This document shows, piece by piece, positions 7,104 through 64,000 of a stretch of DNA of 64,000 nucleotides (within the stretch, counting starts at the first letter, position 1; each line of letters starts with the position of its first letter). Made by a program: the position numbers and the translations under genes. The stretch is taken from contig OZ024742.1 in NCBI GenBank assembly GCA_964016885.1, positions 31,372,001 to 31,436,000 of the forward strand, read 5' to 3'. Origin of the DNA: Eledone cirrhosa. Lineage: Eukaryota. The notes beneath the pieces are model-generated. The model ran no database searches, had not been told where the DNA came from, and saw nothing but the letters and a program-made list of their open reading frames with translations.

Positions 7104-7373
7104 CTTGTCTAGGAGGGAAAGCAGCCGACGTGATTATATTACTAAACACTTCGTCATCTTTGACCAAAGAACAATTTGTTGTTCAAATCCAGCGGGCGGA
7201 ACAATTGGTCAGATTATTGCGTAACTTTAACGTAGAAGATAAACAATATAACCGAATATCAATTATAACTCTCAATAAAAATCGAATTCATGCTGTTGCA
7301 AAATTCAAGAGTCGTTCCCAAACCGGTCCCAGATACACTGAAGAACTAGCAAGCACTCTTCGTAAACTTAAAA
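7104..7373 (+). CDS. VWA gene exon: N-terminal half of a VWA domain (ACLGGKAADVIILLNTSSSLTKEQF...)
   Basis: Acceptor ttgtattgcag, donor gtaagt, 270 nt, phase 1-1. C....ADVIILLNTSSS resembles the VWA strand-A motif ADIVFLLDxSxS; RISIITL resembles RVGVVTF. Confidence 0.85.
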
Positions 7374-7994
7374 GTAAGTATATTATCAATATCAGACATG
7401 AATGGAAAGATAGAAATCGATTAAATCGACCTCAGTGTGTTACTGGTACTTTATTTTATCGACCCCGTAATTTTTATCGTGAATGAAGGGCAAAGCTAAC
7501 TTCGGCAGAATTTGAACTCAGAACGTAAACGGCCATAACTCTATGGCGCAAAGCATGTTGTCAGACGCTCTACCGATTCTACTGCCAATACAATATATAT
7601 ATATTGTGGACAGAAACATAACAAAAACACTTATAATAGATTAGAACTCATGACCTGGGCACTACTAGTTTAATGTCTAACCCACTTGGATACTTTTAAT
7701 AATATTACAAAATTGCAAAATACTTATTTTTAATTTCTAATATTTTCCAATTCTACCGAAGTAGAGTGCATGGCAACATGAGTAAAGGAGAACCGAAGTA
7801 GAGTGCATGGCAACATGAGTAAAGGAGAAGACAAATTGTGATGAAATATTTAGTTGTTTCATGATGTTCTAGGTTCAAATCCCACCGGAGCTTACTTTGT
7901 CTTCCAACCTTCTGGATCGGAGTTTCAGGTATCCAGAATTTCAAGACTGATAATAAACTGTCGACTGATTCTATTGATTGTACTTATTCTGTGA

Positions 7995-20249: not shown

Positions 20250-22660
20250 AAAACAAAGACTGGTTTGATGAGAATGACCAGGAGGTCAAGGCTCTGCTAG
20301 ACAGAAAACAAAAGGCACTTGATGCAGTTCTTAAAGGTGGTAGCTCTGTTGGTGACAATAATGAGCATTACAGACAGGTAAAGAAGGAAGTGCAGGTGAA
20401 ACTCAGAGCTATGCAAAATACCTGGTGGAGCAACAAAGCAGATGAAGTTCAAGTGGCATCTGACGGCAACAATGTGAAACTGCCGCACTTTCTACTCACA
20501 GAGGTGTATGGCCCTTTCAGCTCTCCAGTGGCCCCTTTGAGATCGAAAGATGGCAAGCAATTACTGCGTGACCCAAAAGACACTCGACAGATAGAGAGAT
20601 CACTTTGATGAGCTCTTAAACCAGGTTGATGATGATTTCATTTGTTCCATTCCTATTGAACCAGTGAAGCATATGAGATGGCTAATGTATCTTCTCTTGC
20701 AGAGGGGACTTCTGTTGTGCATAAGCTGAACTGTGGTAAGTCTCCTGGTATGGATGGTCTGAGTGGAGCGGTTTTGAAGTGTGGTGGTGAAAACTTCACG
20801 CAGCGCCTGACTGACCTCATGAAAATGGTGTGGGAAGATGAGAATGTCCCACAAGAAGGATGCGCTCATGGTGATTCTCCATAAAGGAAAGGACGGCAAG
20901 GACAAATGTGGCAATTATCATGTCATATCCCTTCTTTCAGTAGTTGGTAAAGTCGTGTCGAATATTGATGGATAGATTGATCCCAAGAGTTGCTCTGAAT
21001 GTGTTGCATGAGTCGCGGTGTGGGTTCAGAAACGAAAGAGGAACAGTGGATATGATCGTTTCTGCTCGGCAGCTGCAAGAAAAGTGTATCGAACAATGTA
21101 TGGACCTTTACCAGGTCTTTGTTGACTTGACAAAGGCCTTTGACACTGTCAATCGAACTGCGTTGTGGGAAAAAAATCCAAGGTAGGGTAGAAGATTCTG
21201 CATCTTTTCCATGATGACATGAAGGCTTTGGTCAGTATTGGTGGTAGCATCTCTGAACCAATATCAGTTGAAAATGGAGTGAAGCAGGGGGACATTCCGG
21301 CTCCAACTCTGTTTTCCTTATATTTTACGATAGTGTTTCTCATGGCATTCAAATATTGTTCTCATGGGGTTTACATCAGGTATCGCACTTCAGGAAGGTT
21401 GTTCAACACCAGGCGCTTTGGTACAAGCACAAAGGTATTAACATCTATAATCCGAGAGTTTTTGTATGCAGACGACTGCGATCTTTTTGCACACTCACAA
21501 AGTGACATGCAGCATATTATGAACTTTTTTTATGCAGCTTGCAGCACTTTGGGCATCACAATAAGCTTGGAAAAGACTGTTGTGATGTATCAGCCAGCAC
21601 CTGGAAACGAGTACACTGCACCAAGTGTGTACGTGTACGGAAAGAGGCTAAAAGTTGCCGACAAGTTTGTTTACCTTGGTAGTACGTTGAACACTTCATG
21701 CACACATGATAATGAAATATTTTTAAGAATCAAGAAAGCCAGTGATGCTTTTGGACGGCTGCATCAACGTTTATGGTCCAGACGAGGTATCACTATCGAA
21801 ACCAAGGTGAAAGTGTATCTGACTTGTGTCATCTCCTCTTTACTTTATGTTTGTGAAACGTGGGTCACATACAGAAAGCAGCTCAAGGATCTGGAGAGAT
21901 TTCACCAACAATCTCTTCATAAGTTACTTGGGGTGTGGTGGAAAATGTTCGCAGTGATTTTGAAGTTCTAGAACGGAGCAGGTGCTTGACGAAAGAGAGC
22001 ATAATCTTTCGGTATCGGTTGAGGTGGTGCAGTCACGTGGTCCGGATGTCTGATGATCGTATTCCAAAGCAACTTCTCTATGGAGAACTGTGTGAAGGAA
22101 GGCGACCACCACATAAACTAAAAAGGCGGTACCGGGACTGTATCAGGGGAACCTTGGCTTGTGCTAGAATTTCATCTGACGAATGGGAGAAAATGGCTGA
22201 CGAGCGTGTGAAGTGGAGACGTTTGATCAAGCCAGGTGGTGAACACTTTGAAACTTGTCGGAGAGAACACCTAACACTGAAAAGGAAGGTGAGGATTTAG
22301 ACTGTTCTGAACTGCCTGCTGTTGAACATCATCTGGTTTGCCAACACTGTGGTCGAGTCAGCCTGAGCAAAGCTGGTTTGATTAGACATGAACAAAGTCA
22401 TATCAGTAGACCTCATGTAGATTATCATCTGAAAAGGTGTAAGAAATGTACAAGCATGGGAGGTCTTAAAAGATACATGTGAACATACAGCCAGAACAAA
22501 GCAATGGAAGGTTTCGGAGGAGCCTAAAGTTGCCATGTGTGTGCCAGAGGATGCAAGTATTTGGCTGGTTTAAAGAGTCACATTTGTGCTTCACATTTTT
22601 GAACATTTTATCGGGCGATGGCAATACTTGAACACGAGTTTGCAGCCATCATGTAGTATG
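20250..22660 (+). mobile_element. 5'-truncated, frameshifted RTE (BovB-like) LINE
   Basis: KDWFDEND, KSPGMDG, FVDLTKAFDTV, GVKQG, LYADD, F.YLGS, C-terminal CxxC..H...H finger; (TATG)n tail. Confidence 0.92.
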
Positions 22661-40539: not shown

Positions 40540-43500
40540 TGTCTTTTTCGGACCCCGCTGAGGCAATTTCATATCATCTGCCTCTGTTAAAGCTGGGCAT
40601 GAAAATCGGATTACCTTCCAAACACGCCCAGGCCTACCACCTGATGTACGTGCTGCAGCTTCTTTGAATCGGAACTCAGCACAACATGAAAGTTTTAGTC
40701 TGCGTGATGATGGGCAGATCTGGAGGTTTGTTAAGGCTGGTGAAACGTGGTAGAGAGATACCAGCTGGTCTGAGTGCGCTCTACCCACAATACCTGGCAA
40801 TGAAAAAACCGCAACAACTCTGGGAAACTAAACCAGAACAACCTGCCATCCTCTACACACCATCATAATCTGTAAACAGGGTACAAATTGTTATCCTTAA
40901 ATGCTCGCAGTTTATGCAACAAGATACATCTGTTTAACTCCTACGTCAAAAGCATCGACTCTGACTTCATCACAGTCACGGAAACATGGGCACATTCCTT
41001 ACTCCGTGATGGAGTTTTCAGCATTACTGGGTACAACCTGTTCTGCAAGCACCACATTAATCGCTGTGGTGGTGGTGTGATGGTCTACGTTTGTTCAAAC
41101 TTTTCAGTAATTCCTTGCATTGATTTGAACGAATCACAAGAAGTTTTTTTCTGTGACATACGTATGACCATGTCAACACTTCTGCTTGGTTTTGTTTATC
41201 ACCCCCCCCCCCCCCCCAAAAAAAAAACTACCATCAGGACACACAGCTTTGTGATATCCTCAGAGCTGCTGCCAGGAAAACAGTGTTTATTGCAGGTGAC
41301 TTCAATCATCCTGAGATCGATTGGGAAATCTTTCGTTGGCCACAAAAAGTGCAAATGATTTCCTTGAGCTGGACTCAAACTGGTCACAACTAGTCACCTC
41401 TCCAACAAGAGGTGACAACACTTTGGACCTGCTCTTCACCACTACTCCTGAAGTGGTTATCAGTTGTACTACTAAGGAACCTCTAGGTGACTCTGATCAT
41501 GCTATGATCATTGCCAATCTGGCTCTTGCAGGCAGCAACAAAAACCAGAACCATCTCCAATCTGCTTGCTTTGATTGGAACTTGTACTGCACCAAAACAG
41601 GCATGAGTTCTATAACTCTGGAGATGTGAACACTATACTCCAGAGCATCCTGGGCTCAATATGGATAGCGTGTGCAGCATCAGTGCCACGTAAGCAGAAA
41701 AAAAAACCACCCCAAAAGTGCAATTTGGGAAACTTCAACGGTCCGACTTGCCAGGAAAGAACGTCGGAACGCTGAACAGGAATATAAACTGCATAAATCA
41801 GATGCCAACAGAAGAAAGCGTAATAAATCTTCCAACCATCTCAAGCAAGTGACAAAAAAGGCAGTGCTTGAATTTGAACAGTGCATAGCAACCAATCCTG
41901 ACAGTAAGGTGTTCTGGAAATATGTACATTCAAAACAGAGACCTCACTCTCCAGTTGGTCCTCTTCGCAATCCCCACACAAGCCAGATCACTGACGATCC
42001 CAAAGAATGCGCAGAACTCATTGCTGAATGCTATGCAAGCATTTTTACTGTTGAAAACCAGAATGTACCATCTCCACCATCAAATTCCATAACAACTATG
42101 GAATTTACAACTGCAATGCTGCGACGTCACCTTAAGAATAAGCGCAACTATACCTCCCCTGGTCTTGGTGGTGTTACATACCTGCTTCTTAAACGTGGCG
42201 GGTACTTCCTTTTGCACCAGCTTTCTTTCTTCTTTCAATACTGACTCAATGGTGCTACTCCGGAGCAGTGGAAAACTGCCAGTGTCATTCCCCTGTTCAA
42301 AAAGGGCGATCGCACGTCACCTGTCAACTATCGTCCAGTCAGTCTTACTAGCTGTATTGCCAAACTGATAGGATCCTGTGTCAGAGAAACACTTTGGAAC
42401 TTCTGGAGCTCTCACAACCTCATCCGGCCCTCGCATTTTGGATTTATCCCTAACTCCAGCTGCTGTAATCAGCTTATCGAGTTCCTTGAAGACATTAACC
42501 GGATCACTGACAGCGGCTCATGGGTGGATGTTGTCTACCTTGACTTCGTTAAGGCTTTTAATTCTGTGCCACACAAAAGACTTATGGTGAAACTCTCTGC
42601 AATGGGTGTGTCTTCACCATATGAGATGTCATCTGGTGTATCACAGGGATCTGTTCTTGGTCCCCTTTTGTTTGTTGCATATATTAATGACATAGATGCC
42701 AACTTAAAGAATGCCACAGTACTGAAATATGCAGATGACATCAAGCTGTACCTTGAAGTCAAGAGGACAGATCCTGAAATCTATAACTCTTTCCTACAAT
42801 CAGACCTGGACACAATGCAGCAATGGACCACAGACTGGCAACTGAAGCTGGCTGTGGACAAGTGTATCACCATTCATTTTGGGAGGAAAAATCCCGCGTC
42901 CACATACTCCCTCCACAACACTGATATCAAGAAGTCCTCTTGTGAACGCGACCTGGGCATTACTGTCAGCAGCGATTTGCGTTGGACAAAGCACATCTCT
43001 AAAATTGTCAAGAAGGCCGAGGGTGTCTTGGCATCACTCAGCAAGGCCTTTGTTAGCCGCTCTCCAGCCACCTATTTAAAGCTGTATACAGCTATGGTAC
43101 GACCACACTTGGAATTCGCATCATCAGTCTGGACCCCTATCTTGCTCAGAACATTGACCTCCTAGAAACTGTTCAGAGACGTGCAACCAAGCGCATACCC
43201 TCCATCAGACACCTACCATACTCTGAACGCCTTGCTTCCCTGGGCATGGATTCATTGAAGCTCCGACGTCTGGCAATGGACTTGGTAAACACCCACAAAA
43301 TTATTAACCAACTCCCCAACAACAACCCTGAGCACCTTTTTGATCTCCATGTGTCTAACACACGTGGACATGCCTACAAAGTCAGAAAACAGCACAGCTC
43401 CCATGACTTTCGGAAACATTTTTTCACGCTTAGAGTTGCTGAAGCATGGAACAAACTGCCTGCGTTAGTTGTTAGCTGCCGAGACACTGCATCCTTTAAA

Positions 43501-45207: not shown

Positions 45208-45692
45208 CAGTGGTCACCAACCTTTCGGACCTCATGGACCACTGAATTCATAATCTTAAATCCCGCAGACTACTAATATGAATTTTTTTACAAAGACAAA
45301 TACATTCAAATTTTCTCGGTGACCACTGGTTGGTGACCACTGGTTGGTGACCACTGGTTGGTGACCACTGGTTAGTGACCACTGGTTGGTGACCACTGAT
45401 TGGTGACCACTGATTGGTGACCACTGGTTGGTGACCACTGGTTGGTGACCACTGATTGGTGACCACTGGTTAGTGACCACTGGTTGGTGACCACTGATTG
45501 GTGACCACTGATTGGTGACCACTGGTTGGTGACCACTGATTGGTGACCACTGGTTGGTGACCACTGGTTGGTGACAACTGGTTGGTGACCACTGATTGGT
45601 GACCACTGGTTGGTGACCACTGATTGGTGACCACTGGTTGGTGACCACTGGTTGGTGACCACTGATTGGTGACCACTGATTGGTAACCACTG
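45208..45692. mobile_element. hAT MITE whose right TIR is amplified into a 14-bp tandem array (45318-45692, about 27 units)
   Basis: Left TIR CAGTGGTCACCAACC; array unit GGTGACCACTG(G/A)TT; 8-bp TSD ATCTAACA at 45200-07 and 45693-700. Confidence 0.9.
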
Positions 45693-45932: not shown

Positions 45933-46082
45933 CTATGGACATTCTGGTGGAATTTGGTTCTTCTTCTCATGACAGTCACGAACAATACACTCAGCTATAG
46001 CAGACATGTCTTTGGGGTTTTTTGCTGATGTAAACAGCAAAGATCTGTCCATACGAGTCATTATAACAGCCATTTTGAAATC
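45933..46082 (-). CDS. ureG: UreG-like terminal exon 6 (DFKMAVIMTRMDRSLLFTSAKNPKDMSAIAECIVRDCHEKKNQIPPECP*)
   Basis: Acceptor ttattacatgtag, 150 nt, phase 0, TAG stop. R..RSLLFTSAK resembles UreG R..RPFVFTNLK. Six exons total 675 nt = 224 aa plus stop. Confidence 0.85.
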   Translation of the reverse strand, partial: DFKMAVIMTRMDRSLLFTSAKNPKDMSAIAECIVRDCHEKKNQIPPECP

Positions 46083-46296
46083 CTACATGTAATAAATAAA
46101 GATGAGTATAAAGATGTTGTTGCCATGTTAACAAGATGAGAAATATTAGAAAGGGTTTGTCTGATGAAATACATAGGAACAATATTAGTGGAGAGATGCT
46201 GTACTGAGAAGGACCTTTCGAACCCATGCCAGCATGAAGAAATGGACATAAAATGATGATGATGAGGAGGATGATGGTTAATTCCAAAATACTTAC

Positions 46297-46400
46297 CTCC
46301 ATGTTAAATTCCAAAGCCTTTTCTAAATCTATTTTATTGACCACAAGTAATTCACAGTAATCATTACCAGCTATTCTTTTCTTGATAATGTTTTCACCAC
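46297..46400 (-). CDS. ureG: UreG-like exon 5 (GGENIIKKRIAGNDYCELLVVNKIDLEKALEFNME), NKxD motif
   Basis: Acceptor ctatttttgtag, donor gtaagt, 104 nt, phase 1 to 0. LLVVNKIDL corresponds to the UreG LLVINKTDL guanine-specificity motif. Confidence 0.93.
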
Positions 46401-46439
46401 CTACAAAAATAGTAAATTGTTATTAACATCATCTTCTTT

Positions 46440-46990
46440 TTCACCCACTTATTCTTGATGGGTCGAGGGGGCAGAGTCCTTAAACACTCCTTCCAGCGGG
46501 TCCAGTCAGAAGCAACCATCTTCAACTGATCCCCAAGCATGACCAACCAAACTCATGGATGTTATCCAACCATCTTGCTCGGGGTCTACCCCTGGGTCTC
46601 CTGCCAGTTGGTTTTGCCCATAAAATCTATCCAGTGATTCTTTCCTGAGACATTCTAACTACATGGCCATAGTATCGGAGCTGTGATCTCTCAATTTGTA
46701 GAATTAGCGGCTCTACCTGGAGTGACACTCCCTTCTCTGAGCTACACACTCTACCGACTAATGTTACTCCAAAGACCCTTTGGAGGAACCCCCATTTCGT
46801 ATTCTTTCGGTCATTATCCAAGATTCATGACCATAGGTAAGGCTTGGTATGAATACCGAATTGAAGATAGCAAGTTTGGCTTTTACACCAACCTCCCTTC
46901 TGATTACCGAATGCTGAAACTGGCACATTACTGCACCATCTCCTGCAATTATTGTACTTAATTCAGCCTTCTATCACTCCTGAATATGGC
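46440..46990 (-). mobile_element. RTE LINE 3' fragment in UreG-like intron 4
   Basis: LQVEPLILQIERSQLRYYGHVVRMSQERI. Confidence 0.75.
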
Positions 46991-47291
46991 CCCGAGATAC
47001 TTGAACTTCTCTATCTGCTTCAGTGGAACTCCATTTCACTTGGAAAGTAAGGTGAGGGTGGAGAGAGAAGTGTTGCCCCTCCCCCATCTCAACAGTATAT
47101 TTAATAAAGGTGAATGAATGGTGCAAGAATGGCTGCCTTTGACAATATTTAGCTGTTTTAACGGCTGTTCTAGCGATCAGTTTTCTCATGTTTATATGTA
47201 TTCAAATACACTCTCGCTTAATCTCAGAGACAACATCGTTTTTCATTTGAAAAAAAAACAACATTATTATGAAATTAGGTGAGGTTCAAAC

Positions 47292-47439
47292 CTGCGATAT
47301 CAATTATTAGAATGGTGTAATCAACCAAATCTCTGTTAAAATGGGCGGCATGACAATCTCCAGCAGATTCTAACAGAATTATTTCAGGTTGGAATTCTTC
47401 CGTCAATTCTTTGATTGCTTTCAGGTTTCCATCAATATT
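47292..47439 (-). CDS. ureG: UreG-like exon 4 (NIDGNLKAIKELTEEFQPEIILLESAGDCHAAHFNRDLVDYTILIIDIA)
   Basis: Acceptor ctatttttag, donor gtttga, 148 nt, phase 0 to 1. Aligns to UreG ...NL.A.EEL...D..L.ESGGDNLAA.FS.EL.DY.IY.IDV.GG. Confidence 0.93.
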
Positions 47440-47699
47440 CTAAAAATAGAGAAATAGAGAGAAATATACAGAAAGAGATAGAGAGAAATATATATAGAGG
47501 GAGATAGAGAAATATATATAGAGAGAAATATATAGAGGGAGATAGAGAAATATATATATAGAGAGAGATAGAGAGAAATATATATAGAGGGAGATAGAGA
47601 AATATATATAGAGAGAGATAGAGAAATATATAGAGGGAGATAGAGAAATATATATATAGAGAGAGATAGAGAGAAATATATATAGAAAAAGCCTTATAG

Positions 47700-48342
47700 T
47701 TGCAGTACAAGATTAAGCTCTTTCTACCAATTTGGTAAAATATAACATCTACAAAACTTCTGACACCCAGAAATGCAGACTCTCTGGAAAGAATGTGGAA
47801 AATGTGGCCAACTTAGTAAGTATGTGCAAGAGCATTACACAAAAAGAATACAAGTGCCACCATGATAAAGTCTGTCTACACCTGTGTTGGAAATACCAAT
47901 ATGGAGTCATAGAGAATTGGTATGAGCATATGCCTTGTAAAGTAATGCAGGAGGAGGAAAAAGGAATGATATTCTGGGATTAAGATTTTCAAACTGATAG
48001 AGTAATCGAGCACCACTGACCAGATATTGTCGTATTGAACAAGAAAGACAAATGCTGTCAGAGCCTAGATGTAGCCATACCAAATGACACGAATATTGCG
48101 AGTAAAGAGGTTGAAAAAGTCACCAAGAACTTCGGAATGAAAGTGGAGCTGACAAGACTGTTTGGAATGTAAGAGAGTAATGTGGAAGTGATACCAGTTG
48201 TGATTATGGGGGCATTAGGGTCAATCCCATTGAAATTTCAAGATTCTTAAAGTGACTGGGAATACCATAGAGGTTGGGTGTCATACAAAAGGTGGCTTTG
48301 TTAGGTACTGCAGATATTTTGAGGAAAGTATTATTTGTCTGA
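47700..48342 (+). mobile_element. R4/Dong-like (RLE-type) LINE 3' fragment
   Basis: Decayed CCHC knuckle (CRL.GKNVENVANLVSMC), HDKV, WYEH.P, IFWD, PDIVV, DVAIP, K..EK and GALG, with stops. Confidence 0.8.
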
Positions 48343-48404
48343 GGTCCTTATTGTGACTTGATAGATGACTAAATACCCTGGGACAATAATGGTTTCTGTT
48401 TAAT

Positions 48405-49789
48405 GACCAGCTGCCCATGAGAACTCCTATATGCAGATGATCTAACTCTCATAGCTGAATCTATGCCTGAACTAGAGAAGAAATTCCAAACATGGAAGCA
48501 TGGCCTAGAATCAAAAGACCTTAAAGTTAAGTTGTCTAAGACTAAAGTTCTAGTTTGTAGAAAGGAAAATAGGGCTCAGGTGCCCTCAGGGAAATGGCCA
48601 TGCTCAGTGTGTAGGAAAGGAGTAGGAAGAAATTCTATTTTATGTCCCAAATGCAAACTATGGGTACATAAAAGATGTAGTGGGATCACAGGTAAACTAT
48701 CTAAGAACGTAGATTTTATATGTGGCCGATGCTCAGGTGCAATAAGTAGCAAGTGCCCACAGGATACTAGCTCCTTCTATTGCCCAGATAGTTCTATAGA
48801 AATAGTGGACACTTTCCGTTACCTGGGTGATAAAATCAGCAGTGGTGGAGGGTGTACTTCTGAAAGTACAGTAGCCAGAGTCAGAATGGGATGGAAAAAG
48901 TTCAGAGAGCTTATACCGCTGTTGGCCACAAAAGGTTTCTCTCTAAAAATGAAAGGCAGATTGTATGATGCTTGTATACGAACAGCAATGCTACATGGCA
49001 GTGAGACATGGGCATTGTGTGCAGAGGATCTGCGCAGACTGGAAAGGAACGAAGCATGCATGCTCCGTTGGATGTGTAATAGTAATATACGTGAACGGCA
49101 AAGCATAAATGAACTAAGTGAGAAATTAAGAATAAGAGGGATCAGATGCTGTTTACTTGAGAGAAAATTACGTTGGTATGATCACGTGATGCGCATGAAA
49201 GACCGTATAAAAAAGTGCAGGGTGATCAAAATTGATGGAAGTTACGGAGTAGACCCAGAAAAACCTGGGACGATTTAATAAATTCCAACCTCACACACTT
49301 GCACCTCTCTAAGACAATGTCACTGGACCAAGATCTTTGGCGCTATGCAGTAATACAAAAGACCCGCCTTGCCTATGTATAAAGTGAAACCTACAGTCAG
49401 TAGGCACCTCTTAACCAAATATACACCCCAATCCACTACCCCTACCCTATCCTCCCACTCCCACCAACACCACCCTCTCTCTGTAAAGTTGGTACCACAA
49501 CATCCAGTCCAAATAAATGAGATAATGAGATCGAGATCGTGTAGGTGTCATGACAAAAAAAAACACACAGTCCACGCTGTAATGTGGCCGTGTAGGTAAC
49601 ACGATAAAAACCTCCCAGTCCACACTGTAAACGTGGTTGGTGTTAGGAAGGGCATCCAACCGTAGAAAACATGCCAGATAGTCCTATATGAGCAAGACAC
49701 GGTCACCCGACCAACCTTTCCTCAAGTGGGACAACTCCCGTCTAACCCATGCTAGCATGGAAGATGGACGTTAAACGATGATGATGATG
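48405..49789 (+). mobile_element. 5'-truncated RTE-X-like LINE
   Basis: ELLYADDL, Cys/His insert WPCSVC..C..C..WVH..C, FRYLG, LHGSETW; 3' UTR ending in (GAT)n. Confidence 0.9.
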
Positions 49790-49992
49790 CACAAGACCAA
49801 CAATTTGTTTAAGGCACAAGGCCAACCCCAGTGCATTACTGGTACTTTATTTTATCGCCCCCGAAGGATGAAAGGCAAAGCTAACCTCGGTGGGATTTGA
49901 ACTCAGACCATAAAGGGCTATAACTCTATGCTGCAAAGCATGTTGTTTGATGCTCTACAGACACTGCCAATCCAATAAAAACACAACATTAC

Positions 49993-50089
49993 TTTGTTCA
50001 TAGAATCCAGTGGACATCCCTCTGTTATGACAGATCGAATCTTCTCTTTTGGTATGGCACCTGATTCAACCAATTTGTCGGCATCAACA
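49993..50089 (-). CDS. ureG: UreG-like exon 3 (VDADKLVESGAIPKEKIRSVITEGCPLDSMNK)
   Basis: Acceptor tatatttcag, donor gtaatg, 97 nt, phase 2 to 0. Aligns to UreG EDAEFL...GALP.ERI..VETGGCPH, but reads CPL. Confidence 0.92.
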
Positions 50090-50107
50090 CTGAAATATAA
50101 ATATATA

Positions 50108-50605
50108 TTAAAAATTAGAATTGGAGCTCTGAAATAGCAATATATATATGGATGTATATATAATGTATTTTGCAATACACTTTATGCTTAATTAACAGCA
50201 TTTTGAAGACCGTAAGCTATTGTTTTAAAGTAGTGACAAATTCACTCACTTTGATCTCAGCAAACAGGGGAGATAAGCCGACAAGACTTGTTTCGCTTTG
50301 GTTTCAGAGCTCCAATTCTAATTTTTAATTTCTGCCTGACCAACAACCGCTCTGAATAATCAGCTCCTGATTATTTACTAGATTTCTATAAGAATATAAC
50401 ATCAATGATCTCAGCAAACAGGTGGGGTAGTTGGCCTTGATAAGCTTCAACCAAAGCGAAACAAGTCTTGTCGGCTTATCTCCCCTGTTTGCTGAGATCA
50501 AAGTGAGTGAATTTGTCACTACTTTAAAACAATAGCTTACGGTCTTCAAAATGCTGTTAATTAAGCATAAAGTGTATTGCAAAATACATTATATATACAT
50601 CCATA
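50108..50605. mobile_element. Nested-palindrome Penelope-like element with a hammerhead variant
   Basis: Arms at 50147-50303 and 50449-50605; second inverted repeat at 50108-50134 / 50302-50328; core TTGATAA-gctt..aagc-GAAA-caa-GTC at 50437-50467. Confidence 0.7.
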
Positions 50606-50654
50606 AATATATATATTTATTTATGTTAGTTTACCTCTACATGAAGCCACAAAC

Positions 50655-51378
50655 AGCCTATGTGGTCAACAGTCAGCCTACATGTTGTCAACAGACATTC
50701 TACATGTGGTCAAGAGACTGTCTACACGTGGTCAACAGACAGCCTACATGTGGTCAACAGACTGTCTACATGTGGTCAACAGACTGTCTACATGTGGTCA
50801 ACAGACTGTCTACATGTGGTCAACAGACTGTCTACATGTAGTCAACAGACAGCCTGCATGTAGTCAACAGACAGCCTGCATATGGTAAACAGACAGCCTA
50901 CATGTGGTCAACATACACTCCTACATGTGGTCAACAGAGCCTACATGTGGTCAACTGTCAGCCTACATGTAGTCAACAGACAGCCTGCATATGGTAAACA
51001 GACAGCCTACATGTGGTCAACTGTCAGCCTACATGTGGTCAACAGAGCCTACATGTGGTCAACTGTCAGCCTACATGTAGTCAACAGACAGCCTACATGT
51101 GGTCAACAGACAGCCTACATGTGGTCAACAGACATTCTACATGTGGTCAACAGACGTTCTACATGTGATCAACAGACTGTCTAGATGTGGTCAACAGACA
51201 TTCTACATGTGGTCAACAGACATTCTACATGTGGTCAACAGACAGCCTACATGTAATCAACAGACTGTCTAGATGTGGTCAACAGACAGCCTACATGTGA
51301 TCAACAGACTGTCTAGATGTGGTCAACAGACAGCCTACATGTGGTCAACAGACATTCTACATGTGGTCAACAGACATT
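50655..51378. repeat. 22-bp minisatellite (CTACATGTGGTCAACAGACAGC variants)
   Basis: About 33 tandem units. Confidence 0.95.
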
Positions 51379-51471
51379 AAACATTGATATCTACAAATGT
51401 CATTATATTCCTCTACATATGTCAACCAAATATCAACATTACAATTACAAGTGGTATCAGATAGTCTAGAT

Positions 51472-51606
51472 CAGCGGTCATCAACTGGTTGTCTGCAGAA
51501 AGATTTTAATTTATTTATCTTTTAAAAAATTCATATTAGTGGGCCTTGCGATTTAAAAAATTATGAATTTAGTGGTCTGTGTGGTTGAAAAGGTTGGTGG
51601 CCACTG
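51472..51606. mobile_element. 135-bp hAT MITE
   Basis: CAGCGGTCATCAAC / GTTGGTGGCCACTG termini with 8-bp TSD GTCTAGAT. Confidence 0.85.
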
Positions 51607-51684
51607 GTCTAGATCGAGAGGCATCAGAAATTGTTTTGTTGAGATGCTGAAAATTAGAAGTAATCTCTCTGAAATATCACTCAC

Positions 51685-51806
51685 GTGGTGTAGAAATCAT
51701 TTGTTACTACACAGATATTATGATCTTTCAGAACAGAACACACGGCAAGGATAATGGTGGTTTTCCCTGAACCAATTGGACCATGAATGCCAACTGTAAA
51801 AGCTCG
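51685..51806 (-). CDS. ureG: UreG-like exon 2 (RAFTVGIHGPIGSGKTTIILAVCSVLKDHNICVVTNDFYT), P-loop
   Basis: Acceptor tttcatttcag, donor gtgagt, 122 nt, phase 0 to 2. Matches UreG RAFTVGIGGPVGSGKT and VVTNDIFT. Confidence 0.93.
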
Positions 51807-51886
51807 CTGAAATGAAACAAAGTTTTACATTTTTTAGAAAACAAATATAAATGTTATTTCACACCATTCCATCTTTCTTAATTTAA

Positions 51887-52091
51887 CCCTTTAGCATTCA
51901 TATTACTCAATATTTACTATTGTATTTTCACAGAAAAGGCTTTATCACACAAAATATCAAATCTATGAGATTTTGATATTTATTTTGAGAACAATATGTT
52001 AATGTCAGTATGAGCGGCAAGTTATAACTGGTTTGAACAGAAAGAGGTGAGAGAATTCTGGCCAGATATGGCCGGTTTAAATGCTAAAGGG
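51887..52091. mobile_element. 205-bp piggyBac-type MITE
   Basis: TTAA|CCCTTTAGCATT...AATGCTAAAGGG|TTAA. Confidence 0.85.
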
Positions 52092-52109
52092 TTAAGAAAT
52101 AAATTAGTT

Positions 52110-54615
52110 ATGGTTGCTATGGTTCCAGTGTGGTAGTGGGAAGGACTGACTTGTGGTTGCTATGGTTTCAGTAAGGTAGTGGGAAGGACTGACTTGTGGT
52201 TACTATGGTTTCAGTGTGGTAGTGGAAAGGACTGACTTGTGGTTATTATGGTTTCAGTGTGGTAGTGGGAAGGACTGACTTGTGGTTACTATGGTTTCAG
52301 TGTGGTAGTGGGAAGGACTGACTTGTGGTTACTATGGTTTCAGTGTGGTAGTGGGAAGGACTGACTTGTGGTTACTATGGTTTCAGTGTGGTAGTGGGAA
52401 GGACTGACTTGTGGTTACTATGGTTTCAGTGTGGTAGTGGGAAGGACTGACTTGTGGTTGCTATGGTTTCAGTGTGGTAGTGGGAAGGACTGACTTGTGG
52501 TTACTATGGTTTCAGTGTGGTAGTGGGAAGGACTGACTTGTGGTTACTATGGTTTCAGTAAGGTAGTGGGAAGGACTGACTTGTGGTTACTATGGTTTCA
52601 GTGTGGTAGTGGGAAGGACTGACTTGTGGTTGCTATGGTTTCAGTGTGGTAGTGGGAAGGACTGACTTGTGGTTACTATGGTTTCAGTAAGGTAGTGGAA
52701 AGGACTGACTTGTGGTTACTATGGTTTCAGTGTGGTAGTGGGAAGGACTGACTTGTGGTTGCTATGGTTTCAGTATGGTAGTGGGAAGGACTGACTTGTG
52801 GTTGCTATGGTTTCAGTGTGGTATTGGGAAGGACTGACTTGTGGTTGCTATGGTTTCAGTATGGTAGTGGGAAGGACTGACTTGTGGTTGCTATGGTTTC
52901 AGTGTGGTAGTGGGAAGGACTGACTTGTGGTTGCTATGGTTTCATTATGGTAGTGGGAAGGACTGACTTGTGGTTGCTATGGTTTCATTATGGTAGTGGG
53001 AAGGACTGACTTGTGGTTGCTATGGTTTCAGTAAGGTAGTGGGAAGGACTGACTTGTGGTTACTATGGTTTCAGTGTGGTAGTGGGAAGGACTGACTTGT
53101 GGTTGCTATGGTTTCATTATGGTAGTGGGAAGGACTGACTTGTGGTTACTATGGTTTCAGTGTGGTAGTGGGAAGGAGTGACTTGTGGTTACTATGGTTT
53201 CAGTATGGTAGTGGGAAGGACTGACTTGTGGTTACTATGGTTTCATTATGGTAGTGGGAAGGACTGACTTGTGGTTGCTATGGTTTCAGCATGGTAGTGG
53301 GAAGGACTGACTTGTGGTTACTATGGTTTCATTATGGTAGTGGGAAGGACTGACTTGTGGTTACTATGGTTTCAGTGTGGTAGTGGGAAGGACTGACTTG
53401 TGGTTGCTATGGTTTCAGTGTGGTAGTGGAAAGGACTGACTTGTGGTTACTATGGTTTCAGTGTGGTAGTGGAAAGGACTGACTTGTGGTTACTATGGTT
53501 TCAGTGTGGTAGTGGGAAGGACTGACTTGTGGTTGCTATGGTTTCAGTGTGGTAGTGGGAAGGACTGACTTGTGGTTGCTATGGTTTCAGTGTGGTAGTG
53601 GGAAGGACTGACTTGTGGTTACTATGGTTCCAGTGTGGTAGTGGGAAGGACTGACTTGTGGTTACTATGGTTTCAGTAAGGTAGTGGAAAGGACTGACTT
53701 GTGGTTACTATGGTTTCAGTGTGGTAGTGGAAAGGACTTGTGGTTGCTATGGTTTCAGTGTGGTAGTGGGAAGGACTGACTTGTGGTTACTATGGTTTCA
53801 GTGTGGTAGTGGAAAGGACTGACTTGTGGTTGCTATGGTTTCAGTGTGGTAGTGGGAAAGACTGACTTGTGGTTACTATGGTTTCAGTATGGTAGTGGGA
53901 AGGACTGACTTGTGGTTACTATGGTTTCAGTGTGGTAGTGGAAAGGACTGACTTGTGGTTGCTATGGTTTCATTATGGTAGTGGGAAGGACTGACTTGTG
54001 GTTGCTATGGTTTCAGTATGGTAGTGGGAAAGACTGACTTGTGGTTGCTATGGTTTCAGTGTGGTAGTGGGAAGGACTGACTTGTGGTTGCTATGGTTTC
54101 AGTGTGGTAGTGGGAAGGACTGACTTGTGGTTGCTATGGTTTCATTATGGTAGTGGAAAGGACTGACTTGTGGTTGCTATGGTTTCAGTATGGTAGTGGG
54201 AAGGACTTGTGGTTGCTATGGTTTCAGTGTGGTAGTGGGAAAGACTGACTTGTGGTTGCTATGGTTTCAGTATGGTAGTGGGAAGGACTGACTTGTGGTT
54301 GATATGGTTTCAGTGTGGTAGTGGGAAGGACTGACTTGTGGTTGCTATGGTTTCAGTGTGGTAGTGGGAAGGACTGACTTGTGGTTGCTATGGTTTCAGT
54401 GTGGTAGTGGGAAGGACTGACTTGTGGTTGCTATGGTTTCAGTGTGGTAGTGGGAAGGACTGACTTGTGGTTGCTATGGTTTCAGTGTGGTAGTGGGAAG
54501 GACTGACTTGTGGTTGCTATGGTTTCATTATGGTAGTGGAAAGGACTGACTTGTGGTTGCTATGGTTTCAGTATGGTAGTGGGAAGGACTTGTGGTTGCT
54601 ATGGTTTCATTATGG
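52110..54615. repeat. 43-bp minisatellite, about 58 copies, in UreG-like intron 1
   Basis: Unit TGGTT(A/G)CTATGGTTTCAGTGTGGTAGTGGGAAGGACTGACTTG with no unique spacers. Confidence 0.97.
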
Positions 54616-54823
54616 CATTATGTTATGGTTTCATTATGTTAGGGTAATCAACAGTCTTATTTACATACATACATTCCAGCATTCTTTCTCTTTTTACTGA
54701 CCTCTGAATGTATTTTATCATAGGACCAGCACTAGAGAGGTTGTCATGTCCCTGACACACTTAAAGAGTGCAACCAACCATTTGTGTGATAACTTTTCAA
54801 ATGAAAGATATTAAAATACTTAC

Positions 54824-54877
54824 TTTATTCCAGTCGGTTCGGTAGAAATTCTGACCGGGAATTCTTCTACAAGTCAT
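54824..54877 (-). CDS. ureG: UreG-like GTPase, coding exon 1 (MTCRRIPGQNFYRTDWNK)
   Basis: ATG at 54877, donor AAA|gtaagt at 54823, phase 0. The RTDWNK|RAFTVG junction resembles eukaryotic UreG R(D/N)(W/F)NERAFTVG. Upstream acceptor ttaattacag at 54937; the frame is also open upstream of the ATG, so the start is not certain. Confidence 0.75.
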
Positions 54878-57379: not shown

Positions 57380-58601
57380 TAGATAGATATGTTTCTTTTA
57401 TTTGCCACCAGGGCATCAAAAGTGGGACAAGTACAAAGGGGGGAGTTTACACAAAAAGGCGTCCTCAATAAGGAGGAGGCAATAACAAAATATAAAAATA
57501 AAATAAAATATAACAAAAAATAAAATTTATAACAAAATCCTCAATAGAGAGGAGGCACCTTGGGGGGTCGCACACACCCCCGGAAAAAGTGTGCAACCCT
57601 TTTCCTCAGGAGCACAGAGAGGGGGTGCTCCCTCGTTCCTTCCTCTTTTCCACCTACAGGCTTATGTAAAGAGAAGGCCCATTCACACGGGCCATTCTCG
57701 CCACTTTCACCCATCTTTCATAGAAACGGCTGGGGTGGAGCACCTCTCTCTCCATCCTGATCCTTCTTCCGAAATGATATCGGAAGAAACGGACCAGTTG
57801 TTGGCCAGAGAGAAAGGTGCCTGACCTCAGTCCTTTCAGACGCGTCCACCATACAACCTCTTTCGCCATGGCTATTACGCACAGAAACACCGCCTCTGCT
57901 TCATCTTTGAAGGGGGGAGGCGGCTTGATCATTACAATAGACTCGGTGGTCAACCGGATCGGTCCCACCCTTGACAGCAGTTGTTCGGCATAGCCCCACA
58001 GATCGGCTACGCCCGAGCAGTGTACCAATGCGTGTGCAACGGTTTCCTCGTCGCACACGCATCTGGGACAGATCTTTTTGGCGGGGTCCCTACCCGGGCG
58101 CCCGTGTCTGTAGAGCCTTTCTCGAACGGGTAAAGCCCCTCGGTAGCACTGCCAGGCCAGGGACTTCTGGAAGTTGTCCATAGGTCCCGGGCTAAATGTC
58201 CTACCGAACAGGCTGGCCAGTTCGTCCTCCTCCATGTCTAGGGCTTCTCCGAGGGCGTCGTCGCACCTGCTGCGTACCAGCCCTCTATAGAATGTTGCGG
58301 TGGAGTCTCCACTGATAACCGGATCCGCCTGCCAGAGGGCGGTGAGCGCCTGGGCACACTCAGTGTGCCAGGCACCCAGTTTTCTCGGTCTTTGCTTGAC
58401 CCAGGATTGCAGCGCGGTGAGTGAGACGAGTCTGGGAAAGGTTCGTCTCACAAACGAGGCCCACACCGGTTGACCGGTGAGGAATACGTAGAGGTGCCGT
58501 AGCCTTAATGCGTGTTTACGCATCATTAGCCACGGCATCCCCAGCCCTCCTTTCGAAGGGTGTTGACAGCAGATGGATCTCCTCACCATAGGAGCCCGCC
58601 T
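57376..58601 (-). mobile_element. 5'-truncated Tx1-like LINE copy
   Basis: 311-aa ORF2 C-terminus (KGGLGMP, CPRC...ETVAHALVHC) paralogous to the adjacent copy; (TATC)n tail. Confidence 0.9.
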
Positions 58602-58669
58602 CAGATAGATAGATAGATAGATATGTTTCTTTTATTTGCCACCAGGGCATCAAAAGTGGGACAAGTACA

Positions 58670-58670
58670 A

Positions 58671-58712
<42 letters not shown>

Positions 58713-61700
58713 TTCTATTTATTTGCCATGAGGGCACAAAAGAAGGGGACATTTACACAGTGGGGGAGTTTACATAAATCGAGTAAAGAAAAAAGGAATA
58801 ACAATAATAATATAACAATAAAAAGTCCTCAAAAGGGAGGGGGCGTGTTGGGGATTGCACATACCCCCGAAAAGTGTGCAACTCTTTTCGCGGGGGAAGC
58901 CCAGAGAGGAGGCGCTCCCCCTTTCCTCTTCACTTCTTCACCTACAGAACAATGTAGAGAGAAGGCCCATTTACACGGGCCATTCTCGCTTCTTTCACCC
59001 ACCTTTCATAAAACTGTCTGGGGCCAAGCACTTCTCTCTCCATCCTGATCCTTCTTCCGAAGTGGTATCGGAAGAAGTAAACCAGGTGATGGCCGGAGAG
59101 AAAGTCACCCGACCTCAGACCTTTCAGGCGCGTCCACCACACAACCTCTTTCATCATGGCTATTACGCACAGAAAGACCGCCTCTGCTTCACTTCTGAAG
59201 GGAGGAGGCGGCTTGATGTTCACCACAGACTCGGCGGTTAATCGAATCGGCGCCACACGCGACAGCAGTCGTTCGACGTAGCCCCACAGATCGGCAACGC
59301 CCGGGCAGTGTACCAGTGCATGCGCAACGGTTTCCTCGTCGCGCACGCATCTGGGACAGATCTTTTTCGCGGGATCCCTGCCCGGGCGCCCGTGTCTGTA
59401 GAGCTTTTCTCAAACGGGCAGAGCCCCCCGGTAACACTGCCAGGCTAGGGACCTCTGGAAGTTGTCCATGGGTCCCGGGCCGAAAGTTCTACCGAACAGG
59501 CTGGCCAGTTCGTCCTCCTCCATGCCTAGCGACTCTCCAAGGGTGTCGTCGCCCTTGCTAGCCACCAACCCTCTATAGGATGTCGAGGTGGATTCTCCAC
59601 TGATAGTCGGGTCCGCTTGCCAGATAGCCGTGAGCGCCTGGGCACACTCGGTGTGCCAGTTGCCCAGTTTTCTCGGTCTTTGCTTCACCCAGGATTGCAG
59701 TTCGGTGAGCGAGACGAGCTGTGGGAAGGCTCGCCTCACAAACGGGGCCCACACCGGCTGACCGTTGAGGAATACCTGTAGATGCCGTAGCCTCAATGCG
59801 TGCCTACGCATCAACAGCCACGGCATACCCAGCCCTCCTTTCGAAGGGTGCTGGCAGCAGATGGATCTCCTCACCATGGGAGGCCGCTTCTTCCAGAGGA
59901 ACTGGAAGAGCATGCGTTCCATGATGGTGAACTTTTCCTTGGGGCAAGGCACAACGGTCAGGCGGTAGTAGATGACGGACGCTATGTAAGCGTTCGTCAC
60001 CTCCACCCGACCTTTCAGTGATAGTTTGCACTTGGCCCACTTCTGGGTCAGCGCAAACACCCTGCTCGTAACCTTGTCCCAATTCTTCTCCACCTGGAGG
60101 TCCGGTCCGAACCAGACCCCGAGCAGCTTCACCGGGCCCTCCGTCCACCGCCCGACGACACCGTCTAACGGCATCGGTTTGCCCTCCGCGTTCCGAGTTG
60201 CAAACCGACTCACTTGTCCTGGTTCAGCCTAGCCCCCGTCAGCCTTTCGTATTCCTCCAGTAGGGTGGCGATCGCCCCGATTTCCGAGGCGTCCGCCACC
60301 ATTACTGTTACGTCGTCGGCATAGGCCGAGACCGCTTTGTGCAATCCCGGTTCCAGGGGTATGCCCCGCAGCAACTCCAACTTCCGCAGCAGTGGCTCGA
60401 GAGTCAATACGTACAGAAGGGAGGAGAGGGGGCACCCCTGTCTGATGGACCAGGTGATTTGAAACGGCTCCGAGAGGTAGCCGTTTACTTTAATCCTAGA
60501 GTAGATGTTGCCACTGTGCATGGCAGAAATCCAGCCCCTGAAAACGGGTCCGAAGCCCGCCGCCGTTAGCACCGCATCCAGGTAACCATGGTCGACTCTA
60601 TCGAACGCCTTAGATTGATCCAAGTTGATCAGGGTCCCACCAAAGCCGGGTTTGTTGCCAACCCTCTCTACGATGTATCGCATGAGGTGGAGGTTGTCGT
60701 GAATGGACCTGAACGGGATAGCGCATGTCTGCGCACCTCCCACCAAACCACCCACCACAAGCGCCAACCTCTTCGCCAACACCTTGGCCAAAATCTGTAA
60801 CTCTGCATTTAGCAGAGTTATGGGCCTAAAGTTACTTAAGTCGTCCCCTTTGCTCTCGTCCTTCCTCACTAGCGTGACCACGCCCTTGGTCACAGAACAG
60901 GGAATTCTCCCGTTCTGTTGCCAGTTGCAATAGACAGCCTCGAGGAGTTCGGAGAACAAGACCGGCATAGCTAAATAAAGTTCGTATGGTAGACCATCGA
61001 GACCCGGAGATTTGCGTCTGCTGCATTGGCTGAGCGCTTCACCGATTTCAGTGGCTGTGATTGGCCTTTCGCAGCACTCCGCTTCGCCTCTCGAAAGACG
61101 CGGTAGACCGTCGAGGTATGGACCGAAGTCCACATCCCCGTCCGGCCCCCCGCCCCCTCCGAACAGTCGAACAAAGTGCCTTTGAAAGGCCTCGCACATC
61201 CGCTCAGGTTCAAGGATCACCCGTCCATCCTGGTCTCGCAAAGACCGAATGGTGGATTTAATCCCACTCTTGGCTTCTGTCACGCGGGCCCAGCTAACAG
61301 CTTTGGTCCCCTCGTTTCCTAAAGCACGTATTTTACTTCGGACAACGCAGCCTTCGTGCTTGGCGTCAAAGAACTGGCTCAATGCCGTTCTCGACGCTAA
61401 CACTCTGGCCACGTCTCCGCTCCTAATCGCCTCTTCTAGTTTATCTGTTAACTCCCTTTCCTTCCTATTTCTATTTGCCGCTAGTTCCTTACTGTAACCT
61501 ATCGAACTTACTCTAATCTCTCTCTTTAGAGATACCCACCACCTGCTGTTGACGATCGTTCCCGTCAACCGCATCTTAACTAAGCTACTAATCCGGTTCC
61601 TGTAATCTTTCTTTGCCGGCAAGGACAAGTTCATCTTCCAGTAACCGGGACCCTGTCTATGCGTTCTATCAAGGTTGACCACGCAGGTCACTAATTTGTG

Positions 61701-64000
61701 ATCTGAATAGCCAACCATGATCAGTTCTGGACAACTAAATACGTCCCTATCCTTACTCCTAACCAAAAACCTATCTAGGTACGATCTAGATTGTCCACTG
61801 CGGTTTGCCCAGGTCCAGGTTGGCTCAGTTGGACAATCTAGTCGAAATCTATCGACCAGGTCGAATCGATCGAGTAACCCCTTGAGGCTGCTACACCCCC
61901 CTCTATCGGGACATGCCCCTGCATAGTCCCAACGCGCATCTAGGATTCCATTCCAGTCCCCCACTAAAAGCAGGGAACGCGACGTTCCTAGAAAAGTCTC
62001 CAGACGCTGGAAGAAGTCGGCTCTTTCCGCCCCGAAGGGGGCATAAAGACCGACCAGTCTGAAAGCCCCGCCTTCACCGCCTCCGACGTCCAGCACCAGT
62101 AATCGACCCCCCGGGTCCGAGTGAACAATCTGTACGTCGAGAGCCAGACGTTTATCCAGCAGTACGGCAACCCCCCCCCCCCCCCGCCTCCGGGTTGACA
62201 GAGAGATGCGTGCATCTCAAAGTCATCGAAGGCGGGCGCCAGCTGTCTCACGCTGCTGATCCGACTCTCGCAAACAACCATCACATCTATACTTTGTGAC
62301 CTGAGGTCACTTAGAAGCTTTGCTTGCTTCCAAGCTGAGCCCAGGCCACGCGCGTTCAAACAGCCAACTCTCAATTGATCTATTTTGGTGTTGAAAGTGA
62401 AGAAAGAAAAGCACCTACCTCTCCGGGTTGTGTAATTTCCATGGCATCAGGTGTGTTGGGTGGAGGGATGTTTTGTGGTGGTGTGGGGGTACACGTGTGT
62501 GGTGGGGTTGGGGTATTTGGAGTTGTGTCAGGGAGAGGGGCGGTTATGGGGAAATCTTTCAAGAGGACGCGATTTAACGGTTTTAAACAGGGGGGGGGCT
62601 CACGTCCTGTCTAAATTGTTCTTTTAAGGAACGATAAAGGTCCAGAGGGACCTTTATCATTTTTAAATGGGTGAAGTTCTCTGTTGAGATAAAGTTTGGC
62701 CCTTCGGTCTGCACCATAGGGTTATTGTTTATTAATTTAACCAGTTTTTTGTTTTCTTTATTTATATATGTGTATTGCAACGTCTTTTTTTGTGATGCTG
62801 TCAATGTTTCGGAGAGGGGAGGCGCAGATTTATTTTTGTTTGTTGAGGCTGAGGTGTTTTTGATTGGAGTTGGTGTTTGTGTGTGGGTTATTTGTGGTGT
62901 GCTGGGTGTGTGTTTTCTTTTTTTTCTTTTAACTTGTCTGAAGGCTTCGCCTCCTTCTTCTTCAGAAGTTGGGGGAAACTCTTCAGCGCTAGGTGGGAGG
63001 GACGTGTTGTGTGGTTGTTTTTTTTTTGCGGGAGGGGTAAATTTGTTACTGTTTTTTTAATTATTTGTTTGGAATGGGTTTTGTGGTGGTGGTGGTGGTG
63101 GTAATGTTTGTCGTGCTTGTGGTTGGTGATGGTGGTGGTGATGTTTGTGTTGTGGTGGTGATTTTTGTGTCGTGCTTGTGTTTGGTGCTGGTGGTGGTGA
63201 TGTTTGTGTTGTGTTTGTGGTTGGTGGTGTCTGTATTTTGTTTGCTGTGTGTGGTATTAGTGTATTTTTGGAGGTGGGTGGTGTTGGTGTACTGTTTGTG
63301 GTGGGTGTGGGCAATAGTCCTTTTTGGGGGATACGTTTCGGGCAGTTAGCCTTAACGTGTCCCCTTTCCGTGCATAAATAGCATGCTGGTCTTCTCCCCT
63401 CTACAATTATATCTATTGGGGTGAGGTCATCCAGCCAGATGTGATCCGGGATTTGTGCTATTCTTTCGGGCCTCATTTGGACTAGTATGTCGAGGCCCAT
63501 TCCCAGGAACGCATCTCCAGTTGCCTTCCCCATTGACAGCATTGTGTCTTCGCCCATGTCTATGAAGCCAGCAATAGACCACCAGAAGTCCATTGTGGGC
63601 AGCATTGTTTTTACTTTTACTCTCTGTGTTCTTCTACCCATGTAGGAGGGATAGAAGCTGTATGTTGTCAATGAGAGTGGGCTTAGGGAAAGCTTCTGTG
63701 CCGTTTCCTTGTCTTTTGTTAAGACCGAAATGCTGCCATAGAGTCGGTCCTTTCGTATGAAGAGAATATTCTTCATATAGTCTTTTAGGACCAACTCTAT
63801 ATCCATTTGGCTGGGCTGTGCTGGCTTTCTTGTTTGGTTCAATATAGTTCTGAAGAGAACTGTGCTCTCTGTTCTCGCTTTCTTGAATTCTGGGGGGGGG
63901 GGGGGAGTTAATGGAAAACATTCCGTTCTCCCCCAAGACTATTTGTTTTTTCGCTTCGGCCAGTTTTTCTCTGGCGGCAGTTAAGTCAATTGGTGTATAT
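58670..64000 (-). mobile_element. Near full-length Tx1/L1-clade LINE (ORF1 about 62380-63900, ORF2 58942-62374), disrupted
   Basis: ORF1 knuckle CYLCTERGHVKANC. ORF2 has APE (CLNARGL, GDWN, YLDRFL, SDH), RT (KSPGLDGL, DQSKAFD, RQGCPLS, YADD) and a C-terminal CCHC. ORF2 is broken near 62170, 60210 and 59410. Confidence 0.95.

Follow-up and report, generated by a model that had tools for sequence, protein, structure and literature searches.

The 64,000-nucleotide stretch of DNA analysed here (the window) is part of contig C3 in the 3.0-Gb genome assembly of Eledone cirrhosa, and carries on its minus strand a gene of six exons (675 nt, corresponding to 224 codons plus a stop, with the frame open throughout) whose product resembles UreG. 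UreG is a GTP-binding protein that normally supplies urease with its nickel. In the literature it is treated as a single-client chaperone travelling with urease (PMC2770081). Judged from its sequence, the product is a G3E GTPase of UreG descent that fails UreG's defining functional features, and it was likely retained and repurposed after the loss of urease, possibly for another metal. A sequence-only reading of the window had proposed the six exons and had noted that urease systems are reported only patchily in invertebrates. Its exons stand, the coordinates, consistent phases, GT-AG boundaries, stop-free frame of 224 residues and all of the quoted motifs being present. An animal UreG is in itself no surprise. 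One review states that animals make no urease (PMC6077230); there are, however, reports of the enzyme from Aplysia and sea urchin (PMC2667541) and from coral (PMC3750612), so that an animal ureG as such was already known, and the databases already contained a UreG from a bivalve and a cuttlefish protein labelled 'ureG'. What appears to be undescribed is the orphaned and rewired form seen in coleoids; the cephalopod gene is not treated in the available portions of PMC2770081, PMC10121161, PMC8777255 or PMC10610157, and no literature on a cephalopod UreG, or on UreG in an animal lacking urease, was found within a search coverage that left out most subscription journals.

The gene and its cephalopod orthologues

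At all five introns the proposed junction obtained the top score when judged against three orthologues, the competitors being those GT/GC-AG pairs no more than 60 nt away that keep the reading frame and leave it open (10, 16, 14, 6 and 7 alternatives for introns 1 to 5 respectively). When the exons are scanned singly, UreG (TIGR00101) is the best match of both exon 2 (E 1.3e-7) and exon 4 (E 5.8e-9); exon 3 matches the same profile weakly (E 0.12), exons 5 and 6 do not match it, and exon 1 is below scannable length. The PDB matches of exon 4 consist of two UreG structures only. Cephalopod orthologues align to all six exons in order, with 3-5 gap columns in total. Read depth shows the exons to be single-copy and to lie on contigs continuing into intron DNA, with the intron repeats at very high summed depth, although the three sequencing runs used behave as DNA from one sample that is possibly the assembly's source and are hence not independent of it. 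No RNA dataset was listed as containing the gene, a result that has no bearing on its expression. With its repeat-filled introns and its orthologues in other cephalopods, this is a resident spliced gene, as had been argued, and bacterial contamination is ruled out for practical purposes. Genome searches using TIGR00101, a decapod-type orthologue and a bivalve UreG gave significant matches at this locus only; the gene is single-copy, and no conventional second ureG is seen in the assembly. A third TIGR00101 match (E 4.5) was rejected as a lone P-loop, the likeness of which is to an ABC ATPase. Neither AATAAA nor ATTAAA occurs in the 930 nt downstream of the gene, and a tandem array of 27 copies of a near-palindromic 14-bp unit (45318-45692) lies some 240 nt beyond the stop codon. 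The exons and introns are collected in Table 1.

Table 1 Exons and introns of the Eledone UreG-like gene, in window coordinates; all introns are GT-AG.
Feature	Position	Strand	Content
Exon 1	54824..54877	-	Codons 1-18: ATG, short N-terminus, conserved Cys3, no His-rich extension
Intron 1	51807..54823	-	3017 nt; phase 0; tandem array 43-bp x 58 at 52111-54609
Exon 2	51685..51806	-	RAFTVG strand; P-loop G1 (GPIGSGKT); Cys50; G2 (TND, Asp55 = H. pylori Asp37)
Intron 2	50090..51684	-	1595 nt; phase 2; tandem array 22-bp x 33 at 50649-51376
Exon 3	49993..50089	-	Asp61 (= Asp43); metal loop altered to EGCPL, retaining Cys84 but with Leu in place of His86
Intron 3	47440..49992	-	2553 nt; phase 0; LINE RT/PHD fragment 48421-49275 (+), high-copy repeats
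Exon 4	47292..47439	-	G3 / switch II ESAGDCH: Gly replaced by Ala117, Asn by Cys120
Intron 4	46401..47291	-	891 nt; phase 1; DNA is high-copy repeat
Exon 5	46297..46400	-	Rebuilt loop KKRIAGN replacing PRKGGPGI; Lys148 = Lys131 kept; G4 (NKID)
Intron 5	46083..46296	-	214 nt; phase 0
Exon 6	45933..46082	-	IMTRMDR segment invariant in cephalopods; G5 region; C-terminal Cys223; stop

Homologue searches with single exons found nothing. An ESM Atlas search yielded nothing more specific than clusters of general UreG/cobW type. A profile over exons 2-4 was run against 1.84 billion representatives. Among the 150 proteins that were listed is Argonauta hians GAB1606155.1 (P0002), which is 69% identical to the window protein over all 224 columns; the other proteins listed aligned over part of the length only and were at most 52% identical. 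A search with the Argonauta orthologue returned 559 hits, of which the best 120 were examined, and among the matches listed there were two more clusters at 63%, followed by conventional UreG at 39-51%. One of the two clusters contains a full-length orthologue from Sepia pharaonis (CAE1298776.1, 65% identical to the window protein), and a further orthologue, P0152, is 63% identical to the window protein. The remaining cluster members are Logan records, with the full intronless frame on longest contigs of 1.0-1.7 kb and contig counts per orthologue record of 6, 29, 10, 2 and 23. Because the gene spans 8.9 kb in Eledone, these short contigs are probably spliced transcripts of relatives. In one cluster member, P0289, the N-terminus is different, being Phe/Leu-rich and ending just before RAFTVG, which is what might be expected if an intron 1 placed as in Eledone had not been spliced out. 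The Argonauta and Sepia proteins carry the same substitutions as the window protein and have been given automatic names only ('uncharacterized protein LOC115218132' and 'ureG'), and the label 'ureG' is no evidence that these coleoids possess urease.

In a tree of 41 rows the window protein groups with Argonauta (support 95/84) and Sepia with P0152 (97/96), from which it follows that the gene is older than the octopod-decapod split. Octopods and cuttlefish separated some 270 million years ago. Over four cephalopod lineages, 102 of the 190 core columns are invariant, and the IMTRMDR segment, Cys3 and Cys223 are likewise conserved among the cephalopod rows.

Altered metal-binding and switch motifs

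In order to see what distinguishes these proteins, five cephalopod rows were set against 242 conventional UreG sequences (117 listed hits together with 125 complete frames from 202 pattern matches), a set from which short or incomplete frames were excluded and which is skewed towards RAFTVG-type and Arcobacter-type proteins. Conventional UreG has 76 columns that are at least 95% conserved, and 40 of these are kept in all five cephalopods, while 21 survive in only some of the rows and 15 have gone from every one (for one of these 15 the N-terminal register is doubtful). Every residue of G1-G4 is among those kept throughout (P-loop, TND, ExxGD and NKxD), as are Cys84-Pro85 of the metal loop. A G3E GTPase is defined by a P-loop, a Glu in the Walker B motif (ExxG) and an intact NKxD (PMC2770081), and here these take the form GPIGSGKT, ESAG and NKID, the key residues being invariant in all five cephalopods. 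The inter-subunit bridges of UreG run from Glu42/Asp43 to Arg130/Lys131 (bioRxiv 10.64898/2025.12.08.692910), and the equivalents of Asp43 and Lys131, namely Asp61 and Lys148, are also present in 5/5 rows.

The His of the CPH motif, found in 242/242 conventional rows, occurs in none of the five cephalopods, where it is replaced by Leu, Ala or Met (CPL in the Eledone protein, CPA and CPM in orthologues). Switch II, which reads ESGGDNL in 241/242 conventional rows, has become ESAGDCH in Eledone and ESAGDCL in the orthologues; Ala117 thus replaces a Gly of ESGGDN, while Cys120 is present in 5/5 cephalopod rows and 0/242 conventional ones. All five have also lost two residues of ETGG, namely the Glu and the Gly next in line, together with Pro and Gly residues in the PRKGG loop. 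UreG of eukaryotes and of the UreE-less type is characterised by a His-rich N-terminal extension. The 18 residues that precede RAFTVG in the Eledone protein contain no His, as against at least three in 186/191 RAFTVG-type UreG proteins having a long extension. GCPL and ESAGD had been quoted in the sequence-only reading; they are indeed present, but as broken versions of the UreG signatures, a point that had been overlooked.

The significance of these positions is best appreciated from the H. pylori protein, in which CPH is invariant and ESGGDNL is described as "totally invariant" (PMC3792862). There, the C66A and H68A mutants are monomeric with much reduced nickel binding, H68A abolishing Ni/GTP dimerisation, and the CPH His (printed as 'His66' in the legend) is hydrogen-bonded to Asn103 (PMC3792862). 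In cephalopods, therefore, both partners of one contact have changed, and what replaces Asn103 is a potential ligand.

When tested as a whole against TIGR00101, the Argonauta orthologue scores 137.9 bits, below the family cut-off of 204.2 (the window protein having been scanned exon by exon), while P0021, an eukaryote-like conventional control, scores 257.6. The structure model of the Argonauta orthologue (pLDDT 80.7, pTM 0.82) has the UreG fold, and a Foldseek search with it places 5XKT (E 1.7e-17) and 4HI0 first, then HypB, with the MeaB/MMAA fold far lower. A putative Argonauta homodimer modelled with GTP, Mg and Zn scores 0.56, as against 0.39 for a control, values that speak neither for nor against such a dimer.

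Origin, urease partners and neighbourhood

The N-terminal pattern RxDWNxRAFTVG had been read as being of eukaryotic type, but RAFTVG does not mark out eukaryotes: the pattern was listed in at least 120 bacterial genome stretches (some 900 being estimated), and 60 of these 120 have a frame for urease alpha in the flanking DNA that was retrieved. The Trp just upstream is rare, being found in 3% of 197 rows, the named rows that have it being fungi and a bivalve. Among conventional UreG proteins, the closest relative comes from a bivalve: Mya arenaria UREG-like WAR06465.1 (P0082), a partial sequence whose start is His-rich and which has both CPH and ESGGDNL. Over 109 columns its identity to the cephalopod rows amounts to 51-57% (54% for the window protein). 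Just one of the 242 conventional rows reaches this level in the case of the window protein, and not one does so in the case of the remaining four cephalopods. The Mya protein also shares with the cephalopods the rare residues Trp16, Cys50, Glu99 and Thr104. In the 41-row tree, which was the more careful of two, the cephalopods and Mya are joined with support of 97/87, with branch lengths (in changes per site) of 1.81 for the coleoid stem, about 0.45-0.55 from the crown to the tips and 0.16 for Mya. A first, quick tree of 79 rows, without Mya and with three rows omitted for lack of the trimming motif, left the cephalopod clade unplaced and gave a long-branch warning. Vertical descent from a molluscan ureG is likely.

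The Mya model lacks some 19 residues after HNIC and stops just past VIDVA, so that it was probably mis-joined. It breaks off at the codon of cephalopod intron 4, which suggests that the position of this intron is common to Mya and the cephalopods. A separate observation concerns the chytrid Synchytrium endobioticum, which has two strongly diverged UreG-like proteins (P0120 and P0145) with long N-termini, CPH kept and switch II altered, so that UreG may have diverged independently in this fungus.

The sequence-only reading had seen no urease, UreD or UreF exons in the window and had recommended a search of the genome for these and for a second canonical ureG; none that is credible was found, while controls were recovered. 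In four whole-assembly searches urease went unmatched, both for its alpha subunit (queried with TIGR01792, with PF00449 and with a bacterial protein) and for its gamma subunit (PF00547); UreF gave no match in the assembly, and UreD gave none over the cut-off. Ten UreD matches below the cut-off (best E 0.013) were rejected, all of them containing stops and the two loci inspected being tandem repeats. The same kind of search recovered a methylmalonyl-CoA-mutase-like gene, 12 exons of which were matched at a single locus (G000:C2:142176274-142199901), and three ZNG1/CBWD-like exons (L249, L251 and L252, at G000:C13 36.98-36.99 Mb). A scan of the assembly for amidohydrolases gave five matches; a frame could be read in four of them and, as judged by eye, none of these four looks like urease. 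One locus, L256 (G000:C24:26871112-26871417), has an uninterrupted long amidohydrolase-family frame, open over 231 aa, which resembles that of a dihydroorotase/deacetylase-like protein. Loss of urease in coleoids, and hence loss of nickel use, is probable.

Elsewhere in the window, an exon-like frame bounded by AG and GT at 7105-7375 (+) has a weak match to von Willebrand factor A (PF00092, E 5e-4) and probably belongs to an adjacent gene of the opposite orientation. A GC-rich LINE occupies 57657-62216 (-), its endonuclease, reverse transcriptase and zf-RVT pieces being spread across several frames, and more LINE reverse transcriptase fragments lie at 42245-43162 (+) and 21192-21968 (+).

Interpretation and comparison with known systems

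The interpretation that we prefer, and to which we would give roughly an even chance, is that an inherited molluscan ureG was kept after urease was lost and now encodes a GTP-switched, cysteine-ligated metal carrier, for Zn or Cu rather than Ni, serving a client other than urease. In such a scheme GTP binding would move G2, as in UreG, and two subunits would meet via the retained Asp61-Lys148 pair. The Cys2His2 nickel site would give way to one made up of thiols only, with Cys84 and Cys120 contributed by each subunit, echoing the switch-II Cys of HypB, and upon GTP hydrolysis the metal would pass to a partner docking on the rebuilt surfaces. A thiol-only site would be expected on general grounds of coordination chemistry to prefer zinc or copper. 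As the N-terminus of the Eledone protein has no hydrophobic stretch, the client is more likely to be cytosolic than to be secreted haemocyanin loaded directly. A more specific version, which is put forward only tentatively, is that a coleoid nickel chaperone became a lineage-specific, GTP-driven Cu/Zn chaperone after urease loss through the paired changes of His to a hydrophobic residue and Asn to Cys, giving a four-cysteine site at the dimer interface. If this were true, the protein would be a third metal-handling G3E GTPase of animals beside ZNG1 and MMAA, with a client in copper-rich cephalopods. More generally, a UreG kept without urease in octopods and cuttlefish, with its contacting motifs changed, amounts to a natural experiment in how G3E proteins switch metal and client, and since the protein has just 224 residues and looks soluble, the question is directly testable.

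There are several points that weigh against this interpretation. The altered loops (residues 84-86 and 117-119 of the Argonauta model) have pLDDT values below 50, so that the geometry of the two cysteines is beyond what the model can support. The Glu42-Arg130 bridge is not conserved, there being Val at the Glu site in 3/5 rows and Lys or His at the Arg site in 2/5. Among the cephalopods, columns that have departed from the UreG consensus are invariant in 9/16 cases, compared with 15/32 for columns that are variable in UreG (p 0.76), and special constraint on the changed columns is therefore unsupported. The absence of urease rests on one assembly, the completeness of which is not given, and UreD and UreF are less conserved than urease and so harder to detect. 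As to origin, an approximately unbiased (AU) test fails to reject an Arcobacter-type UreG as sister group (p 0.27), and animals other than cephalopods are represented by the one partial Mya sequence.

Of the other explanations, the one that survives best, though we consider it rather unlikely, is that the protein is a repurposed, urease-independent GTPase that carries no metal, acting as a nucleotide switch or scaffold, with Cys 3, 41, 50, 84, 120 and 223 serving structural, redox or lipid-attachment roles. Such a protein might well keep G1-G4 while losing the His ligand and the His-rich N-terminus, the H. pylori H68A mutant loses nickel, and the conservation of the terminal Cys3 and Cys223 is also what one might expect; what speaks for a metal carrier instead is that Cys84-Pro85 is kept in all five rows although the remaining loop has changed, and that the new Cys appears exactly at the hydrogen-bond partner of the lost His. 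A functionless relic, decaying slowly under relaxed selection, is improbable: the long stem, a crown evolving faster than the bivalve branch and the non-discriminating constraint test would suit it, but the open frame, five intact introns, full set of GTP motifs, invariance of more than half of the core columns and occurrence in octopods and cuttlefish alike would not. Concerning history rather than function, transfer from a bacterium to the coleoid ancestor, with introns gained later, is similarly improbable; RAFTVG-type UreG is common among bacteria, and both the unplaced clade obtained without Mya and the AU result leave room for it, whereas the well-supported grouping with Mya, the exceptional identity and rare residues shared with that protein, and the apparently shared intron all favour inheritance.

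Least probable of all is that the protein still activates a urease which, together with UreD and UreF, is absent from the assembly or was missed, since, even allowing for the known invertebrate ureases, the assembly's unstated completeness and the automatic 'ureG' name of the Sepia record, no urease was found genome-wide by searches that yielded 12 exons of a comparably long spliced enzyme and other members of the amidohydrolase family, CPH and ESGGDN are broken in every cephalopod row, and the Argonauta orthologue falls well short of the UreG cut-off.

Returning to the reading as a repurposed metal carrier, it remains to set the protein beside the known families. It resembles UreG (TIGR00101; H. 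pylori 4HI0 and K. pneumoniae 5XKT) in fold, in size, in G1-G4, in Asp37, Asp43 and Lys131 and in having a Cys-Pro in the metal loop, and is 40-45% identical to RAFTVG-type bacterial UreG. It departs from UreG in the lost CPH His, the change of ESGGDN to ESAGDC, the rebuilt PRKGGPGI loop, the missing His-rich extension, the sub-threshold score of the Argonauta orthologue, and the failure to find urease, UreD or UreF in the Eledone assembly. Profile matches, fold and tree agree in placing it with UreG, as had been proposed, and not with MeaB/MMAA or CobW/ZNG1. MeaB/MMAA, for which a family match should extend over about 300 residues, can be rejected: the Argonauta orthologue has no TIGR00750 match, PF03308 matches weakly in one of three orthologues, and the fold ranks low. 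COG0523/ZNG1 (CBWD) is likewise a G3E GTPase, and its metal site, rich in thiols, occupies the corresponding position, but the 224-aa Eledone protein has neither the CxCC motif nor the C-terminal domain, and the ZNG1-like gene is a separate one on C13. There is an analogy with HypB (TIGR00073; 2HF8 and 4LPS), the metal site of which has two Cys, one of them inside switch II (PMC11672702): in both cases a G3E GTPase carries a Cys in switch II and another in the stretch from G2 to G3. Identity to HypB is, however, only 17-23%, the score is 46.4 against a TIGR00073 cut-off of 121.2, the Cys-His motif of HypB is missing, and the cephalopod switch-II Cys lies two residues earlier than that of HypB; the likeness is one of parallel, not of descent.

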